The position numbers and the translations under genes are program-made. Of a stretch of 39,464 nucleotides of DNA, positions 10,541 to 39,270 are shown in pieces. How positions within the stretch are numbered: the stretch's first letter is position 1; every line of letters begins with the position of its first letter. Origin of the DNA: a virus (Duplodnaviria > Caudoviricetes); IMG/VR virus record IMGVR_UViG_3300005254_000010, positions 1 to 39,464 of that record. One strand, written 5' to 3'. The notes under the pieces were generated by a model. The model did not search any database. It worked only from the letters and a program-made list of their open reading frames with translations, and was not told where the DNA came from.

Positions 10541-10975
10541 ATGCCGAGCAAGAAGAACCTGGCGAAGATCCATATTGCCAAGAAGGAGCTGGGCCTGACC
10601 GAGGAGGTTTACCGGGACGTGTTGCGGGGGATCACGGGCAAGAACACGGCGGCCAAGTTGAATGACAACCAGGCGGAAAGGGTGCTGCGGCATTTCATCC
10701 GCTTGGGCTGGAAGCCGAAATATCAGCCTGAACTGCCCGGCCTTACCATTCCCAGGGACCCGCAGTCACAGAAGATACGGGCTTTATGGATTACTTTGCA
10801 CAAGGCCGGGGTGGTGCGGAACGGATCGGAAGGGGCGCTGCTGGCATTCGTGCGGCGGGTGGCAATGCGTGACCGGCTGGAATGGTGCAGCGTGCAGGAC
10901 AAAAGCGCGGTGATCGAGGCGCTCAAGGACTGGGCGAGAAGGGAGGGCGTCAGCGTTGGGCATCAGGGTAATTGA
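10541..10975 (+). CDS. gemA: GemA / Mu gp16 (DUF1018) family protein
   Basis: LAKIHIAKKELGL..YRDVL, KIRALW and VIEALKDW motifs; directly before mor as in Mu. Confidence 0.9.
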   Translation: MPSKKNLAKIHIAKKELGLTEEVYRDVLRGITGKNTAAKLNDNQAERVLRHFIRLGWKPKYQPELPGLTIPRDPQSQKIRALWITLHKAGVVRNGSEGALLAFVRRVAMRDRLEWCSVQDKSAVIEALKDWARREGVSVGHQGN

Positions 10976-11300
10976 CATACCTGACGAGTATCAGCCGGCC
11001 ATTGAGGAGCTGCCCGGCGATTTGCAGCGGATCGCCGAACACATAGAGCAGCACAGGCCAGGACGGGGGGTTGAAATCACCCTGATCCTGGCCCAGATTT
11101 TCAGGGGCCAGAATCTTTACATCAGGAACATCGATTATCTGCTCCGGCAGATCCGTGACGATGCGATCCGGGCTGAGTATGACCGGGGCGGGATCACTGG
11201 GCGGGAACTGGCGACCAGGTGGGGGTTGTCGCAGCGGATGGTGGAGAAGATATTGGCGAGTGCTGGGAAGGATGATGGGGGGCAGTTGAATTTGTTTTGA
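10956..11300 (+). CDS. mor: Mor/C family transcription activator
   Basis: FRGQNLYI...RDDAIRAEY...RELATRWGLSQRMVEKIL is the Mor HTH pattern; follows gemA. Confidence 0.85.
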   Translation: MGIRVIDIPDEYQPAIEELPGDLQRIAEHIEQHRPGRGVEITLILAQIFRGQNLYIRNIDYLLRQIRDDAIRAEYDRGGITGRELATRWGLSQRMVEKILASAGKDDGGQLNLF

Positions 11301-11464
11301 AGTATAAAACGTTGGAGGAATAGGTCTATAGATATCCTTATATGCCTCCATTTAACGTAAACATTCTTCGGTTTGTCCGCAGAGTGTTTTGGTTGGAATA
11401 TCCAGTCGTTAAGCAAAAAAAACATAATTTCATAAACGTCGCTGTCCCCCCCCTCTAAATAATA

Positions 11465-12763
11465 TTAGTTCGCAGTTAGGACAATTGCGCTTTCACGGAG
11501 TTGCAGCGAATTTTTATTTTCCTCCTGAATAGTTCTGAGATGCTGACCTGAACTGCGAAGTTTGCGAATGACACCGATTTCCTTGAGTCGCCAACCTACT
11601 TTACTAGCAATGTCAGCAATGATAAGATCAACAGGTATTTCGACCCCAGCATAAGCTGAGGTCGAAACAACAACCCATAGGTGAGCTTTTGCATGGGCGT
11701 GCTGTTTGAGGCGAGTAAGAACGTTCTTCATGTCTTCAAAATACGCTTGAACCATTGTGGGGATACGTCGATCCCATAGCACTTTTTTCCGTTCACGAAG
11801 AGCGGTGATACTGTTGAAGTATAGAGGTCCAAAATCGTCCTCCGTGGGAGGCAACCAGGAAGCTTGAACGTGGGAGCGAATTGTACGGAGTCGCACAGCG
11901 CGCAATTCGTTCGTGTCCCTGACGAATTTCCCCAAAAACATTTCGGGGCGGTAAATGTCCGAGTAATCGAAAGAATTTAGATATGGAGGTGATGTGATAC
12001 AAAGTTTGAACTTCGGGATTCCTCCCGAAGAGAGCTGTTGTCGGCAATCACCGTGGTGAACCCGGTATGTTGACGCTTTGAGCGGTGCTTCCTTGATGTC
12101 CTCCGTCATTTGCGCGACGCGGGATTCAAAACTATCAAGGAACTCTTCTCGACCAAAATTCTCATCTTCCCAATCCTTACGGTAACGGAGGCACTTCCCA
12201 TCTTGTGTAGCATTGCAACAATCCATGGCTGCACCAACAAGAGCAAGCCGCAAGAGGTTACGAGTTGGCATCGGGATGCTCTCCGTATTACACCAGCCGC
12301 CTTCGAAAGATCGAACAATCTCAGTATTGAATAGCCACTTTTTCTTCCCCTCTGATGCAGTGAATGTGGAGCTTTTCTCCAGAGCAGACTTTCGCCCACG
12401 CTCAATTGCCAGCAAGACACCTGGAAAATGCTTTTTAAGGGAAAGATGACCGCTCGGCGAGAGTTTCGTGCGCGACACGAATGCAAGAAAGGGATTCACC
12501 TCGCATCCCACCGTAATAAAGCCTTTGGCTGCCGCAGCTACGAGAGAGGTACCACTTCCGCAGAAGGGATCGAGAACGACATCATCTGGTTTGCAATGTG
12601 CCGCTTCCATGGCCTGCTCAACAAGTCCGGGAGAGAAGGCCTCTTTCACGAAATACCAGCGATGACGTGGCATTCTTGGAAGATCTGTTGCCGTTGACCA
12701 ATTCTGACCCTGGATATGAAAGTTCAAATTGAGTGGTGAATTTGGTTCCATAGGCAAAATCAT
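11465..12763 (-). CDS. DNA amino-methyltransferase (SPPY type, probably N4-cytosine), cargo
   Basis: SAM-binding motif I VLDPFCGSGTS near the N-terminus and catalytic motif IV ITSPPY later; ATGA overlap with the upstream gene. Confidence 0.9.
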   Translation of the reverse strand: MILPMEPNSPLNLNFHIQGQNWSTATDLPRMPRHRWYFVKEAFSPGLVEQAMEAAHCKPDDVVLDPFCGSGTSLVAAAAKGFITVGCEVNPFLAFVSRTKLSPSGHLSLKKHFPGVLLAIERGRKSALEKSSTFTASEGKKKWLFNTEIVRSFEGGWCNTESIPMPTRNLLRLALVGAAMDCCNATQDGKCLRYRKDWEDENFGREEFLDSFESRVAQMTEDIKEAPLKASTYRVHHGDCRQQLSSGGIPKFKLCITSPPYLNSFDYSDIYRPEMFLGKFVRDTNELRAVRLRTIRSHVQASWLPPTEDDFGPLYFNSITALRERKKVLWDRRIPTMVQAYFEDMKNVLTRLKQHAHAKAHLWVVVSTSAYAGVEIPVDLIIADIASKVGWRLKEIGVIRKLRSSGQHLRTIQEENKNSLQLRESAIVLTAN

Positions 12764-13857
12764 CTCTCATCTGGAAGTTGGTTATGAAGGTAATACCGTA
12801 AGTATCTGACATCTCCGTCAATGCATTGTGTCTTTACGCCTGGGAGGTCAGCATTTGTTTCACGCATGTCGTATAGAATCAGCGCGGCGGACTTAGCGCC
12901 ATCAGCGATCTTATATCGTTTCACCTGACGGGCACCTCGCAGCGCCCATTTCTCGTTTGTCTCCGCGGACACGGGGCTTGGCGCCATGGCCGCTTTCTTC
13001 TGTTCCCGCGTTTTTGCAGCTTCAAGCCTCTTTTTCCTTCTGTTCGGGTCAGGATAACGGTATTGACGCAGGACTTTGAGTTCCGAGACGACAATACACG
13101 ACTGATCTCGGTAAACAGCGATATCTACACGCCCAGCATTGTTCTGCTCTTCGATTACTATGAGCCATTCTGGTTTGGAATCCGATGTTCTGCATCCCTG
13201 AGCTCTTGCTCGGAGGATGCAGGCTACATGGCTTTGGATGACCATTTCAGTTTCCTTGCATGGGATCCGTTCCTTCGCATTGTACCAAATTGGAGGATAG
13301 CCATTAGGATATTTTAAGCTTTGCACGTAAACATCTTCGAGCATTTCCTCAAATACGTCGATCGTGAATGGCCTTGGAATGTCCTCCCGTAGTAAAAATT
13401 TCCAAGTTATCTTTTCTCCACCGTCTTCAAACACATAGACGGTCTGAGAATCCGTGTCGAACGCCACAAACGGTAAATCCGAAACTCCGTTTTTTTTGAG
13501 CATCCGAATGGTATCGTTGAGATCTTTGCACCCACCGGCAAAGCAGAAAACCCGGTTTAGCGCGTAGTCAGTAATATAAATGTTTCCGCCCAGAAGGGGG
13601 GTCTTATCGTCTTTGAAACAAAAGACCTCATTGCCCCCCTCGGGAACGATGCCCCTTGTGACAATCTCGGGAGCCAAAACAAGGGCACAGTATCCCAGAG
13701 TGATGTCTTGCCGAAATTGCTTGATCCCGCTCCATTCTGCAAGCCAGATTAGAAGCGTTTGGAAGAAGGCTTTGGGCTGGTCGCCACGCACACTGGGTAT
13801 ACGATTGAAGTTATTTCTGGCAATTGCCTTGAGTTCATCGGTATCAATCTGCGTCAT
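12760..13857 (-). CDS. Putative PD-(D/E)xK nuclease effector with unknown N-terminal domain, cargo
   Basis: C-terminal half has ETEMVIQ...EEQNNAGRVDI...VVSELK, fitting an E..D..ExK restriction-endonuclease fold. Confidence 0.65.
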   Translation of the reverse strand: MTQIDTDELKAIARNNFNRIPSVRGDQPKAFFQTLLIWLAEWSGIKQFRQDITLGYCALVLAPEIVTRGIVPEGGNEVFCFKDDKTPLLGGNIYITDYALNRVFCFAGGCKDLNDTIRMLKKNGVSDLPFVAFDTDSQTVYVFEDGGEKITWKFLLREDIPRPFTIDVFEEMLEDVYVQSLKYPNGYPPIWYNAKERIPCKETEMVIQSHVACILRARAQGCRTSDSKPEWLIVIEEQNNAGRVDIAVYRDQSCIVVSELKVLRQYRYPDPNRRKKRLEAAKTREQKKAAMAPSPVSAETNEKWALRGARQVKRYKIADGAKSAALILYDMRETNADLPGVKTQCIDGDVRYLRYYLHNQLPDER

Positions 13858-14483
13858 GCTGCCACCTTGGCCGCTTGAGCCTCAAGGAATCTTAAGTAAA
13901 GGAACATCTCTTCTTTAGGGGAGATTACTATTCCTTTGGGTAGTACAGTTTGAAAGGCACGTGCGGTTTGCACAGAGAGGTTATTGGACGGATCTGAGAA
14001 ATCGATAAACGCACCTTCTGTTTTGCCGGCCTCATCGTAAGTCGAATCATAGAGGGCAGCACTGTCCCATGTGCGACTGCTAATGGAAGCGACCGCAAAA
14101 ATCATTTCAGTAAGGTATTCCTCTATCTGACGACCATAGCGGATTTGTGTACAAGTGTTAATCACATGGCGAGTTGTGCTATTTGTTAAATAGATGGCTT
14201 CCATCCAAACGCCATGCTTATCGGTCAAGTACTCAACGTCCTGAACCTTCAAGACACCGAGGACTGCCAGTCGATCGAGATACCACTGAAGAGTCGGATA
14301 AAATGGTCCCCGTTTATATTTGACGATTGTGGCTGCAGTGGGGGTGGCCTCAAACAACGGAGCAAGACAGTTGGAAAGGTAAATTATTCTGTGAAAAAGC
14401 CTTTTTGGGATGGGCAACAAACCTGCCTTCTGTGCTGCACCCATCAAGAAAACTAACCAAACCTGAGTAGTATAAGCTTGCAT
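13854..14483 (-). CDS. 209-aa hypothetical protein, candidate ABC-three-component middle component (wHTH-like)
   Basis: LFHRIIYLSN...GPFYPTLQWYLDRLAVLGVL resembles a winged helix; lies between the ATPase and the nuclease with 3-nt and ATGA junctions. Confidence 0.6.
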   Translation of the reverse strand: MQAYTTQVWLVFLMGAAQKAGLLPIPKRLFHRIIYLSNCLAPLFEATPTAATIVKYKRGPFYPTLQWYLDRLAVLGVLKVQDVEYLTDKHGVWMEAIYLTNSTTRHVINTCTQIRYGRQIEEYLTEMIFAVASISSRTWDSAALYDSTYDEAGKTEGAFIDFSDPSNNLSVQTARAFQTVLPKGIVISPKEEMFLYLRFLEAQAAKVAA

Positions 14484-14486
14484 TGG

Positions 14487-16499
14487 CTATTTGCGAAACT
14501 CCATAGCTTTTTCAAATGACTCTTCATACTGCCGCCTATATTTACGCATGGCTGCATTCGGAGCTGCTTCGGCGAGGAGGTTAATCACACGTTTGGGGGC
14601 CTCACGTTTACTCTTTAAGTCACCTGGTTCATCCAAACCAAGCAAGGACCTCAGCATATTCTCCCGGTTGAGATTTGTCGTGGCAATGACGACATTTCGA
14701 GCGAGCTTGTCCTTTATGGCAAATTTCCTCAGAAGCCTCCCAGCTTGGTCAACGAAGACCGCATCAAGGCTGGCCTCGGGGGTCTCGATAACCAGCATGG
14801 CCCGCTCGTTTTTTTCCCGGACAGAGTCGAAAAGAGCCATCCTAAACGCAAGGTCGATGAATTCTTTCTGGGATTCTGACACTTGATATTCGTCTTTTCG
14901 TGGAGACCCCGTGGCTTGGGAAAGAGCCGAAGTCATTTCAACAGTGAATTGGGGAAAACTAAGTTGTTCACCCTCCTGGCCAAGGCTCCGCTTAGCCGGT
15001 TCCCAATTCAGCGTACAGCGCTCGGCGAGAAACTCACCTGCGTAGTAGGAGAATCTTTCCGTGAGGCGTTCTTTGAGTTTCTCCATAGTATGGCGTGCCA
15101 TTTCAAGCATCTTCGCATACTCCTGAATTTTAGAATCTCGATCAGCGCGAAGAGAGTCAAGTTCAGCTTGTTTACGATTGATCTCGGAAAGTTGCCTGTC
15201 TCGCTCTTCGTCTGATGGCGGAAGCTTGGCACTGATGGTCTCCACAGCATTCTTCCTCTTCAGATACTCAGAAGAGATGCGGGATCTTTCCTCGTATTGC
15301 TTGGTGACTTCGTTATTGACCAGCGTGAGTTCTTCTTTGAGCACTCGACGCGACTTTTGGAGATCTTCCAAACGAGTTTCGGCTTGCGCGAGACTGAGTT
15401 TACTCTGCGCGCCCATCTTGGCTGGCTTCCGGGACGTCGTGTCGTCTCCACAGAAAGGACAGCGGCCTCTCGCTGCAAGATCCAGGAAGGATTTCGGGTA
15501 TTGAGGATGCGGGTTATCACACACGAGGCAGCCTGTATCCGACGTGATATTGTTGAGAATAAGTTGGATTGTGGCTGGCAAAGAAGGAAACGCCGTGATG
15601 AAAAAAGTTTCCACAAGTGACTGGTACGTTCGTGTGGCTTCCTCGATCTCAAGATGAATTTTTTCGGTCTTTTCAGTGAGTGCAGTTCGCCTGGCCAATA
15701 ATTCCTGCAACTTGATTTGTTGCTCCTCCAGCCGTGATTTGAGGTTATCGGATGTGAGCTGTTCGGCACGCAACGCCTTTTCCAACTGAGAGAGATTTTG
15801 GGTGGCCTCCTTGGCTTTCTCAAGGTGCTTCCGATCTTTATTTAATTGGACCCTACGATTTCGGTAGTCACTATCGATTTGCTTTATTTCATCGGCAAGC
15901 TGAGCGAACTCTCGCGCCTTTTTTGGTCCAAAAAAAAGAATACGGAAAATCTCGAATTGGCCCTCGGGGTTCCAGATCAGGGAGACTTTATCTTCCAGAA
16001 AAAAAGTGAAAGAACGGACAATATAGAAAAAGTCATACTCATCACCAGCCCCAGAAAATCGAACAATAGATTTGCGAAGTGCGCCCTGATCCCCATCAAC
16101 TTGGGATCCGTTCTTCCAAACACCAAGAATCTCAAGATCATGAAGACTTCGTCTGATTCGGATTAAATCCTCGCCGAAATAGAACTCAGCGTCTACGGTG
16201 GCTCCCTTGGCTTCGTCAAGGACTCTCTGGGCAAAAAAGTCAACATGCTTGGATCGCATCTTATGTACCCCGCCAACCGGATTGTAGGGGTCAAACTTTC
16301 TTGGTTCGCGGGTACCAGTGAGGCAACGAAGCATGACATTGAGGAGGGTGGTCTTGCCCAAGCCGTTGATGCCAGCGATTACAGTAATTCCAGGCAGGAA
16401 CGTGTGGTTGATTCCCTTCTTATCGCGGCCTGGGAAGAGTTGGTACTGCTCGATTTTGAGACTCTTCAGTACCGGAAATCGGATCTTGGTAAATGCCAC
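14487..16499 (-). CDS. Rad50/SbcC/SMC-like coiled-coil ABC ATPase, cargo
   Basis: Walker A GINGLGKTT; long coiled coils around central CLVC and CPFC (zinc-hook-like); variant signature VSESQ; Walker B/D-loop LVIETPEASLD; GGAGG RBS before GTG. Confidence 0.88.
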   Translation of the reverse strand: MAFTKIRFPVLKSLKIEQYQLFPGRDKKGINHTFLPGITVIAGINGLGKTTLLNVMLRCLTGTREPRKFDPYNPVGGVHKMRSKHVDFFAQRVLDEAKGATVDAEFYFGEDLIRIRRSLHDLEILGVWKNGSQVDGDQGALRKSIVRFSGAGDEYDFFYIVRSFTFFLEDKVSLIWNPEGQFEIFRILFFGPKKAREFAQLADEIKQIDSDYRNRRVQLNKDRKHLEKAKEATQNLSQLEKALRAEQLTSDNLKSRLEEQQIKLQELLARRTALTEKTEKIHLEIEEATRTYQSLVETFFITAFPSLPATIQLILNNITSDTGCLVCDNPHPQYPKSFLDLAARGRCPFCGDDTTSRKPAKMGAQSKLSLAQAETRLEDLQKSRRVLKEELTLVNNEVTKQYEERSRISSEYLKRKNAVETISAKLPPSDEERDRQLSEINRKQAELDSLRADRDSKIQEYAKMLEMARHTMEKLKERLTERFSYYAGEFLAERCTLNWEPAKRSLGQEGEQLSFPQFTVEMTSALSQATGSPRKDEYQVSESQKEFIDLAFRMALFDSVREKNERAMLVIETPEASLDAVFVDQAGRLLRKFAIKDKLARNVVIATTNLNRENMLRSLLGLDEPGDLKSKREAPKRVINLLAEAAPNAAMRKYRRQYEESFEKAMEFRK

Positions 16500-16760
16500 T
16501 GCACCCTCCGCAAAATATTTGAAACGCAGCTATAGCAAATCTGCGATTCTACGGCAACAAAGTGTAATAATTGGCAACCATAGCGAATTATTTCAACTAC
16601 TTAATTATTATTCAGAGGGGAAAATGGTCGAATCGGCTTGTCGACGATACTCTCCTTCATAGAAAACTCAGCCTCTCCTTCCTTACATCCTTCAGTTTTA
16701 TGTTGGCATCAATAACTTGCTGCTCCGTCCATTTGTCTGGATTTCTCCAGTAATCGACCT

Positions 16761-17234
16761 TCAAGTAGAGATGCTCAGCCATTCCGTCAGTATTAAGCAT
16801 ATCCTTTTCAGCTGTTCCAGATCTTTCTCCGGAATTCTTTCCATCACCTGTTTTATCGCCCTGGTCTGTTGGGGCAGGATTTTCTTGACCAGTCTTTCTC
16901 CCTCCGAGGTCAGTTCGATGTTGTAGCGGCGGCGGTCGTTTTTGTCACGGACCCTTTGTATCAGGAATTTTTTTTCCAGGTTGTCGATGACCGTGGTCAT
17001 GTTGCCAGTGGATTTGACAATATGTTCGCCGATATCCCTCTGGCACAGCGAACCCTGATTGTATAGGATTTCCAGGGTCCGGAACTGACTCTCTGACAAA
17101 TTGTAGCGGGATAAAAAGCGGTACACTTCCCTTGCGGTTATCATAGCACTTTGCTGGAGTGCGTCAAAAACTTCTACCTCCAGGGGGAATTTTTTTGCTG
17201 ATTTCTGCGTGGGCACTTTTTTCTCCTTGATCAA
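16761..17234 (-). CDS. MarR family transcriptional regulator
   Basis: LSESQFRTLEIL, NMTTVIDNLEKK, DKNDRRRYNIELTSEG; start codon uncertain (TTG). Confidence 0.88.
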   Translation of the reverse strand: MIKEKKVPTQKSAKKFPLEVEVFDALQQSAMITAREVYRFLSRYNLSESQFRTLEILYNQGSLCQRDIGEHIVKSTGNMTTVIDNLEKKFLIQRVRDKNDRRRYNIELTSEGERLVKKILPQQTRAIKQVMERIPEKDLEQLKRICLILTEWLSIST

Positions 17235-17474
17235 ATTTGTTACGGTTCAAAATTAATCGACATGACATAATATCGTACACTCTAAAAAAATAAATACCTT
17301 TCTGGTATTTATCTTCTCGCCCGCCCCTTCAGCACTTCCGAACCGTTACGGCTAACAAACACCCTCTGATCTCCCTATAACGTAGGTATTAAGCACCGTG
17401 TGGGTGGTGCCTTCTTTTTCATCTCCTGTTCCCCGGCGGCCCTGCTGTCCGGGGGAACACGTGCAGGGCTGATT

Positions 17475-17867
17475 ATGGACAATCTTCTTGAGCAGGTTAC
17501 CCCTCATTTTTCGCTGAAAGAGCTGCGGTGCCGCTGCTGCGGGCGGATGGGCATCGACCAGGCTTTTCTTGACAGGCTGGAGGACATGCGGGTCGCGTTT
17601 GATCGGCCGATGATCATCGGGTCCGGCTATCGCTGCCCGGACTATAACGCCAGGGTTTCGACAACCGGCCGGACAGGACCACACACCATCGGCGCTGTGG
17701 ATGTGCTGATCAGCGGGGCGGAGGCCCACCGGTTGCTGCACATGGCCCTGATGATCGGTTTCAACGGGATCGGCGTGAAGCAACACGGGCCAATGGCCGG
17801 CCGGTTCATCCACCTGGACAACCTGCCCGGGCACAATCACCCGAGGCCGCGGGTGTGGACGTACTGA
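17475..17867 (+). CDS. Endolysin, peptidase M15 family
   Basis: HFSLKELRCRCCG, SGYRCPDYN, HTIGAVD and FIHLD zinc-peptidase motifs; first late gene. Likely ATG is 17475. Confidence 0.88.
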   Translation: MDNLLEQVTPHFSLKELRCRCCGRMGIDQAFLDRLEDMRVAFDRPMIIGSGYRCPDYNARVSTTGRTGPHTIGAVDVLISGAEAHRLLHMALMIGFNGIGVKQHGPMAGRFIHLDNLPGHNHPRPRVWTY

Positions 17868-38348: not shown

Positions 38349-38508
38349 GACGGGACTGGGGAATGCGTCAACACTCCCCGAACCAGTCAACCGTGAAGCC
38401 ACACGGAAGATGATCCACAGGTTCTCCTGTTATAGCCCCGATGCTGCGCCGTGGAACAGCGCATCGGTCTTATACCAGGGAGCCGGTCAGAGCGCAAGGA
38501 GGTTGCGT

Positions 38509-39270
38509 GTGGCTTCACTTTTTCCCTATTTCGGCGGCAAATCCAAGCTGGCAAAGGTCATTATCGGCAGGATGCCGGTTCATTCCTGTTATGTCGAGGT
38601 GTTTGCCGGCGCCGCGAATGTACTGTTTGCCAAGGACCCATCGCCAACCGAGATCCTGAACGATCTGGACCGGGATTTAATCACGGTTTACCGGGTCGTT
38701 AAGCATCACCCGGAGGAACTGCATAAGCAGTTCAAATACTGCCTGGTGGCCAGAGATGAGTTTTCGCGGCAGATGATGGTCAATCCGGATACCCTCACCG
38801 ATGTCCAGCGGGCCGCCCGGTATCTGTACCTGCAGAAAAGCTGCTTCGGCGGCAAGGTACGGGGCAGGACGTTCGGCACCCAGACCGTCGGCACGCCAAG
38901 GTTGAATTTTCTCACCCTGGAGCAGGCCCTCCAGGACGCCTGGATCAGGCTGGCCCAGGTCACCATTGAGTGCCTGGATTTCCGGGTTCTGATTCCCCGC
39001 TATGACCGGGAGCACACCCTCTTCTTTCTTGACCCGCCGTATTGGCACATCCCTGGCTACAAGCATGACTTCGAGGAGCAGGATTTCAGCGACCTGGCCG
39101 ATGTACTTGCCGGCATCAAGGGGCGTTTTCTGATGACCCTCAACGATACCCCGGAGATACGGGAGCTGTTTGGCCGGTTTACTATCGAGGAGGTGAATCT
39201 GACCTACTCGATGAGCCGCAAGGAAGGCAGCAGATCAAAGCAGAGGACGGAGCTTTTAATTGGCAATTAA
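38509..39270 (+). CDS. D12-class DNA adenine methyltransferase (Dam-like)
   Basis: FPYFGGK, YVEVFAG, EILND and FLDPPY; AAGGAGG RBS before GTG 38509; occupies the mom position of Mu. Confidence 0.92.
   Translation: MASLFPYFGGKSKLAKVIIGRMPVHSCYVEVFAGAANVLFAKDPSPTEILNDLDRDLITVYRVVKHHPEELHKQFKYCLVARDEFSRQMMVNPDTLTDVQRAARYLYLQKSCFGGKVRGRTFGTQTVGTPRLNFLTLEQALQDAWIRLAQVTIECLDFRVLIPRYDREHTLFFLDPPYWHIPGYKHDFEEQDFSDLADVLAGIKGRFLMTLNDTPEIRELFGRFTIEEVNLTYSMSRKEGSRSKQRTELLIGN

Follow-up and report, generated by a model that had tools for sequence, protein, structure and literature searches.

A four-gene cassette of SMC-like ATPase, winged-helix protein, nuclease and methylase in a Mu-like phage, likely an unnamed defence system found across many bacterial phyla

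The window analysed here is a whole virus record of 39,464 bases (IMGVR_UViG_3300005254_000010) from a Mu-like phage, and carries on its minus strand a cassette of four genes that encode, in order of transcription, a structural maintenance of chromosomes (SMC)-like ATP-binding cassette (ABC) ATPase, a small winged helix-turn-helix (wHTH) protein, a PD-(D/E)xK nuclease and a DNA methylase (Table 1). The four open reading frames (ORFs) of an original prediction, made from the sequence alone, were recovered at the same positions, with a 3-nucleotide gap at the first junction followed by two ATGA overlaps, and the domains assigned to them were borne out by Pfam and PADLOC matches, motif conservation and fold comparisons. 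Searches of the cassette proteins against PADLOC, Pfam and NCBIfam matched no named system, in line with the original prediction, which recognised none. The same combination of four genes recurs in many bacterial phyla and probably constitutes an unnamed defence system.

A profile scan with the ATPase yielded at least 120 loci (58 from genomes, 60 from metagenomes and 2 viral; the genome and metagenome sets were the best 80 matches each, i.e. a sample), of which 83 were informative once 5 duplicates and 32 loci that were too short had been dropped. Scanning viral contigs with the single ATPase protein gave no match. The hosts span Pseudomonadota, Acidobacteriota, Verrucomicrobiota, Actinomycetota, Chloroflexota, Thermodesulfobacteriota and Campylobacterota. 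The predicted ATPase-first order is general, with ATPase, wHTH and nuclease (the triad) following one another in 81 of the 83 loci; the two others, L017 and L053, have broken or truncated ATPases. A methylase lies beside 79 of the 81 triads, convergent in 64, convergent with one gene between in 5, downstream on the same strand in 5, upstream on the same strand in 4 and divergent in 1, while the two triads in which none was seen are one at a contig edge and that of L106. The translational coupling of the methylase to the other genes, also part of the original prediction, is no general feature: only 5/79 loci, the window's own contig (L060) among them, have all four genes in a single coupled operon, and in 69/79 the methylase is convergent and faces the nuclease.

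The methylase proved to be co-conserved with the ATPase in both search directions. When, as an unselected test, each profile was searched in 401 genomes of one family (2–4 candidates scored per genome), the ATPase was found in 6 and the methylase in 7. Six methylases scoring above 550 bits, all of the main clade (see below), are in the 6 genomes with the ATPase and lie 1.7–2.1 kb away from it; two of these 6 loci were already known and one (L301) has no detected wHTH. The seventh methylase (191 bits) is in a genome with no ATPase. Across loci, the pairwise identity of each of the four genes is correlated with that of the others (Spearman 0.49–0.66, uncorrected for kinship). These co-conservation counts argue that the cassette is not a chance assembly.

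The first protein is a Rad50/SbcC-like coiled-coil ABC ATPase, with a Pfam SMC_N/AAA_23 match below the cut-off. We take its motifs (Table 1) to be the Walker A, CxxC hook, signature, variant Walker B and D-loop, with N609 at the usual position of the switch His. Both CxxC motifs are invariant across 86 homologues, and the variant Walker B reads E-T-P-E in 83/86 main-family homologues and D-T in L301, L305 and L321, which belong to a divergent subfamily. The best PADLOC model for the window ATPase is LmuB of Lamassu (58.5 bits, residues 12–594), and LmuB is the top model in 32 of the 39 homologues scanned (25–74 bits). The same model also matches at E<=0.001 in 14/14 control genomes, and profiles of the ATPase head alone barely match LmuB-like proteins (best E 0.001). 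Since the LmuB of a true Lamassu operon, at L053, scores 454 bits, the window ATPase appears to be a distant Lamassu relative.

The wHTH protein belongs to no family in Pfam (including MC families), NCBIfam or PADLOC, and its AF2 model (predicted local distance difference test, pLDDT, 96.2) has a winged-helix fold. The best structural match is the C-terminal domain of DarG (7yk3_D; VIA Z 10.7 over 150 residues, root-mean-square deviation 4.0), and the predicted fold also resembles Panacea domains. LmuC is matched at Z 6.7 over 121 residues (9ny5_C) and Z 6.6 over 120 residues (9hqx_d), and the PADLOC LmuC model matches 2 of 98 wHTH members at E about 0.002. A wHTH profile search of PDB sequences gave no match, and neither the wHTH nor the nuclease model had a Foldseek match at E<=0.001.

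The nuclease consists of two domains (AF2 pLDDT 93.1), the C-terminal one (residues about 161–360) with a PD-(D/E)xK fold. Residues E204, D245, E259, K261, G308, Q311, Y315 and D330 are conserved in at least 90% of 66 homologues, PDDEXK_9 matches at E<=0.05 in 33 of these 66, and G308-x2-Q311-x3-Y315 is presumably a QxxxY-like motif. Fold matches of this domain (VIA) reach Z 10.2 with the CdiA-CT nuclease and 7.7 with BamHI, and include Can2, NucC, OkrAI and BstYI; no REase_II model matched the window nuclease in PADLOC and family-model scans. The N-terminal domain (residues about 22–158), of uncertain fold, aligns weakly with five DAC/DisA-family chains at Z 5.3–6.3, below the caution level of the tool, and contains no conserved DGA/RHR-type motif. 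No longer, fused forms of the nuclease were present among 7,992 candidates, which is weak evidence. Across 56 loci the nuclease is the least conserved and fastest-diverging gene, with a mean pairwise identity of 21% vs 44% for the methylase, the most conserved.

The methylase is an alpha-order DNA amino-methyltransferase (FxGxG before SPPY) that matches Pfam N6_N4_Mtase and the PADLOC model MTase_II PDLC03224 (166 bits). Motifs I and IV are intact, with G69/G71 and S258-P-P-Y261 invariant in 68 sequences. SPPY is the usual motif of N4-methylcytosine (m4C) enzymes (PMC8885841, PMC10855626), and the chemistry of the window enzyme is predicted to be N4-cytosine methylation. In the methylase tree the window enzyme falls in a clade, W, that is about 30% identical to the main clade of most loci, and its nearest ATPase relatives (44–48% identity) carry main-clade convergent methylases. 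In the ATPase tree, monophyly of the W-clade carriers was rejected (p-AU 1e-72, 20 rows), L075 and L079 are 68% identical in the ATPase and 61% in the nuclease but only 30% in the methylase, and further clades that are neither main nor W occur in L021/L114, L031 and L121. The methylase is thereby shown to have been repeatedly replaced by a related one and hardly ever lost, and the lineage of the window phage has exchanged its methylase for one of another clade.

Searching 401 and 381 genomes of two phyla with a W-clade profile produced 25 matches, 20 of which were retrieved. Three are true W-clade methylases, and L303 and L305 follow an ATPase of the divergent subfamily in the gene order of the window phage; another two are main-clade methylases with the system, and one of 15 more distant methylases accompanies it (L321). 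Distant relatives adjoin type II-like restriction genes, namely XcyI-family (L317), BsaWI-family (L313), REase_II models (L212, L214), HNH and McrBC-like genes, and the methylase family was therefore drawn from restriction-modification (R-M) methylases. Four distant relatives (L308, L315, L314 and L318) are preceded by a 570–600-aa protein, HerA-like in L314 and with a weak HerA model match in L308, and by a protein of ~390 aa, an arrangement that is another uncharacterised methylase-linked module.

Several natural variants bear on how the parts work together. Five sphingomonad loci (L022, L025, L032, L034 and L041; e.g. L025:9690-13428) keep the SPPY methylase, and their nuclease homologue has no equivalents of E204, D245, E259 and K261 and has conserved C/H residues at its C-terminus. 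A gene of ~510 aa is inserted in all five. Library scans of 2 copies identified a PifA-like KAP nucleoside triphosphatase (NTPase), and the 4/5 copies that were checked have a Walker A; the effector appears to have been swapped for the KAP NTPase. Two triads share one methylase in L005, L006, L042, L116 and L122 (in tandem before the methylase, or flanking it in L122), a doubled triad in L094 ends at the contig edge, and L106 has two divergent ATPases. The divergent second subfamily comprises L121, L301, L303, L305 and L321, with a D-T-P-E Walker B in three and an L303 ATPase only 24% identical to that of the window; the first pattern scans mostly missed it, and the system family is therefore wider than counted.

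Among the described systems closest to the cassette are short Lamassu, ABC-three-component (ABC-3C) and DdmABC, with which it shares a Rad50-like zinc-hook ABC ATPase of ~600–700 aa with a variant Walker B, a small partner of wHTH fold and a PD-(D/E)xK effector. Short-type Lamassu has the Walker B hhhhD[Q/S/T/E] (PMC12663957), compared with E-T in 83/86 of the main family and D-T in L301, L305 and L321 here. The order of Lamassu is effector-LmuC-LmuB, whereas ATPase-wHTH-nuclease holds in 81/81 triads; the Lamassu effector has an N-terminal enzyme and a helical C-terminal LmuA docking domain, whereas the nuclease domain here is C-terminal, behind an alpha/beta domain; and a methylase is nearly always present. 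PADLOC scores the cassette at 58 bits for LmuB with nothing for LmuC or LmuA, against 454/154/304 bits (LmuB/LmuC/LmuA) for the true Lamassu in L053. The ATPase and wHTH appear to be distant relatives of LmuB and LmuC, but by gene order or effector architecture the cassette is not a Lamassu member. At L053:6992-12448 a truncated ATPase of the window family faces this Lamassu operon, which is canonical and complete; type I R-M-like genes are close by, and the region is a defence island.

For the pairing of a zinc-hook ABC ATPase and cytosine methylases, the closest precedent described is the CxC-ABC ATPase/DndE system PbeABCD, which combines a zinc-hook coiled-coil ABC ATPase, a small DNA-binding partner and a nuclease, sometimes with C5 or N4 cytosine methylases, and for which self/non-self marking has been proposed (PMC10853773). 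The cassette has the same kinds of parts, with a predicted cytosine methylase in the neighbourhood of 79/81 triads. It is not a member of that group: the PbeABCD partner is the ribbon-helix-helix protein DndE and its nuclease a fusion of HKD with a superfamily 2 (SF2) helicase (PMC10853773), whereas the cassette has a wHTH partner and a PD-(D/E)xK nuclease without a helicase, and PbeC models reach <=36 bits for the window ATPase.

With type II R-M systems that have alpha-class m4C methylases (the XcyI- and BsaWI-family neighbours; M.DraR1), the cassette shares methylase family, motif order and a single separate nuclease gene. Type II R-M needs no ATPase or wHTH partner, and the near-obligate link to these genes argues against a stand-alone, ATP-independent, site-specific nuclease. 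The ATP-dependent R-M systems (Type I, III and ISP) and MADS resemble it in methylation, in a proposed ATP-dependent step before cutting and in a QxxxY-like nuclease motif, but the motor here would be an SMC-like ABC ATPase and not an SF2 helicase, there is no HsdS-like subunit and the mad3 model match is weak. R-M-like systems of the OLD family anchored by an ABC ATPase are mentioned in PMC12839542, citing Krishnan et al. 2020. No description of the cassette architecture was found in the literature covered; Krishnan et al. 2020 and its supplements, which may list the neighbourhood, lay outside that coverage, and there is roughly a one-in-four chance that the system is already listed bioinformatically. 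Current defence annotators would show merely an orphan methylase and a weak LmuB match.

We consider it somewhat more probable than an even chance that the cassette is an ATP-gated R-M-type defence, in which m4C would mark self and an ATPase-wHTH clamp would license the nuclease on unmarked DNA. The SPPY enzyme would place N4-methylcytosine on a short site, in the DNA of the host as well as of the prophage. An ATPase dimer and the wHTH protein would form a scanning clamp like that of Lamassu, whose core is LmuB2-LmuC (PMC12663957; 10.1101/2025.03.14.643221), and would keep the nuclease inactive. The methylation state of the site would be read by the clamp, probably via the wHTH, and not by the nuclease itself. 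Unmethylated incoming phage or plasmid DNA would then elicit an ATP-driven change that frees or activates the PD-(D/E)xK domain, leading to cutting. The phage's gain is likely to be a lysogen protected against competing elements. Reading of the methyl mark by the ATPase-wHTH sensor, with the effector as a passenger, fits best because the dead-nuclease loci keep the methylase, two triads can share one methylase and the nuclease diverges fastest; the sphingomonad loci in particular point to methylation that may be read by the sensor. We propose more tentatively, as a possibility short of an even chance, that the cassette represents a new R-M class with a plug-in methylase, in which m4C self-marks would be read by an SMC/Rad50-like clamp rather than by a helicase or the nuclease, and the clamp would gate interchangeable effectors (nuclease or KAP NTPase); such a class would link Lamassu-type sensors with R-M.

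A number of results weigh against m4C marking read by a clamp. Reading of the mark by the clamp is without direct precedent, since solved Lamassu senses DNA ends and no methylation step is described in the available text (PMC12663957; 10.1101/2025.03.14.643221). The LmuC matches of the wHTH model (Z 6.6–6.7) are within the generic range for wHTH folds, and DarG matches better. The sphingomonad loci equally fit a methylase role other than guarding against the nuclease. L106 holds an intact triad with no methylase within the locus, and the W-clade methylase of L304 has no ATPase. Lastly, palindrome avoidance was measured against synonymous-codon shuffles in 69 main-clade loci vs their flanking genes, and then in 5 W-clade loci, the window operon and the phage backbone, as a test for the recognition site; palindromes were depleted in system genes about as in the flanking controls, with no system-specific depletion, and no site was inferred.

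Some of these observations would suit a Lamassu-like abortive infection system, which we regard as unlikely but worth serious consideration. The clamp would sense DNA ends or replication structures and free a non-specific killer nuclease, while the methylase would dampen self-triggering or add a separate layer. Such a system agrees with an ATPase that is LmuB-like, as long as those of short Lamassu and equipped with two CxxC motifs (PMC12663957), with an LmuC-like wHTH, with the non-specific nucleases CdiA-CT, Can2 and NucC among the closest structures to the nuclease domain, with what looks like replacement of the effector by a PifA-like KAP NTPase, and with the palindrome result. It accounts poorly for a methylase that stands beside 79/81 triads and is replaced rather than lost, and 'methyl' is absent from the available text of three Lamassu papers (PMC10586767, PMC12663957, 10.1101/2025.03.14.643221).

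Distinctly less probable is a modification-dependent trap, in which the methylase would mark DNA (e.g. that of a newly replicated invader) and the ATPase-nuclease would attack the marked DNA, as proposed for Ambrosia, whose methylation gave phage no protection (10.1101/2025.09.30.679545). The convergent methylase of 69/79 loci permits the separate control that a trap could use, whereas the methylase is co-transcribed in the window phage and in 4 further loci and comes first in 4, as would suit constitutive self-marking, and its relatives work in classical type II systems. It is very unlikely that an ordinary type II nuclease-methylase pair merely travels with an unrelated ATPase-wHTH pair: the nuclease and convergent methylase have that look, and BamHI, OkrAI and BstYI are among the fold matches, but the ATPase-wHTH-nuclease order is fixed and tightly packed in 81/83 loci, triads duplicate as a unit and the identities of all four genes covary as described above. 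The least probable explanation is a non-defence addiction or DNA-maintenance module that stabilises its carrier element, suggested by the resemblance of the wHTH to antitoxin domains (DarG C-terminal, Panacea) and opposed by the patchy spread (6/401 genomes), the low-GC cargo position and the nuclease-methylase content. These three traits typify defence loci, and addiction and defence are not mutually exclusive.

The SMC-like immune complexes known so far (Lamassu, Wadjet) distinguish self from non-self through the shape or the ends of DNA. If the favoured m4C-marking mechanism holds in this widespread system, SMC-like clamps can use an epigenetic mark, and a type of ATP-dependent R-M with a non-helicase motor is added. 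The cassette is small (5 kb), intact and co-transcribed in the window phage, and the natural variants (swapped methylase, dead nuclease with KAP NTPase, doubled triads) make the question of mechanism directly testable.

The setting of the cassette agrees with the original prediction. Its GC content is low (0.46–0.51 vs mostly 0.60–0.66 in the phage backbone), and Pfam matches place it between mor and the lysis gene (endolysin) of a Mu-like phage. The Mu-type genes of the window are MuA, MuB, GemA, Mor, the Mu portal and the Peptidase_M15 endolysin. A marR gene, absent from the earlier account, sits between the cassette and the endolysin; it was rejected as a member of the system, because of 121 loci only L001/L060, the window's own, have it. 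Neither the four cassette genes nor marR were found in 80 viral loci retrieved with the gemA of this phage, and the distance from gemA/mor to the endolysin, 507–4,213 bases in the 8/80 of these loci with a detected endolysin homologue, is ~6,100 bases here; for these two reasons we regard the cassette as accessory cargo.

Table 1. Cassette genes, ATPase motifs and neighbouring genes in the 39,464-base window.
Feature	Position	Strand	Details
ATPase gene	16499-14487	-	670 aa, GTG start
ATPase motifs (residues)			Walker A G43-T51; two CxxC C324/C327, C347/C350; signature S541-E-S-Q; E572-T-P-E; D-loop SLD; N609
Winged-helix gene	14483-13854	-	209 aa
Nuclease gene	13857-12760	-	365 aa
Methylase gene	12763-11465	-	432 aa
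mor	10956-11300	+	Pfam Mor; left border of cargo slot
Peptidase_M15 endolysin	17400-17867	+	Pfam Peptidase_M15_3; right border of cargo slot
marR-family regulator	16761-17234	-	Pfam MarR; upstream of cassette, same strand as cassette

Sequencing runs also cover the cassette. Run X2, possibly the source sample, has a single contig of 5,410 bases that spans 11529–16938 with zero differences, and contigs of run X3 cover 11273–12327, 12333–14381 and 16011–16938, again with zero differences from the window. Contig depth, which is not copy number, is lower over the cassette than over the backbone in runs X2–X4 (in X2 ~8 vs 39–290), with peaks in X2 within the cassette region at 16020–16420 and in marR. 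The lower depth is only a hint of related phages without the cassette.

Three sigma-70-like sites were seen near the start of the cassette, one at 17167–17140 inside marR and two at 16631–16567 upstream of the ATPase gene; they count as weak because 10 such sites were found vs 6.0 expected. In Mu-like relatives (L123–L202) the slot between gemA/mor and the lysis genes is very variable in length and holds unrelated large ORFs, such as one of 1106 aa in L132 and one of 825 aa in L151, and this slot is possibly a cargo hotspot of Mu-like phages. A second low-GC (0.37–0.39) cargo pair lies to the left of the repressor at 324–1783 on the minus strand, where two genes overlap; their products, one of 317 aa and one of 192 aa that is a predicted membrane protein, have no family in Pfam, NCBIfam or PADLOC. 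At the right end of the phage, a D12-class Dam-like adenine methylase (38410–39270, plus strand) occupies what we take to be the place of mom in Mu.

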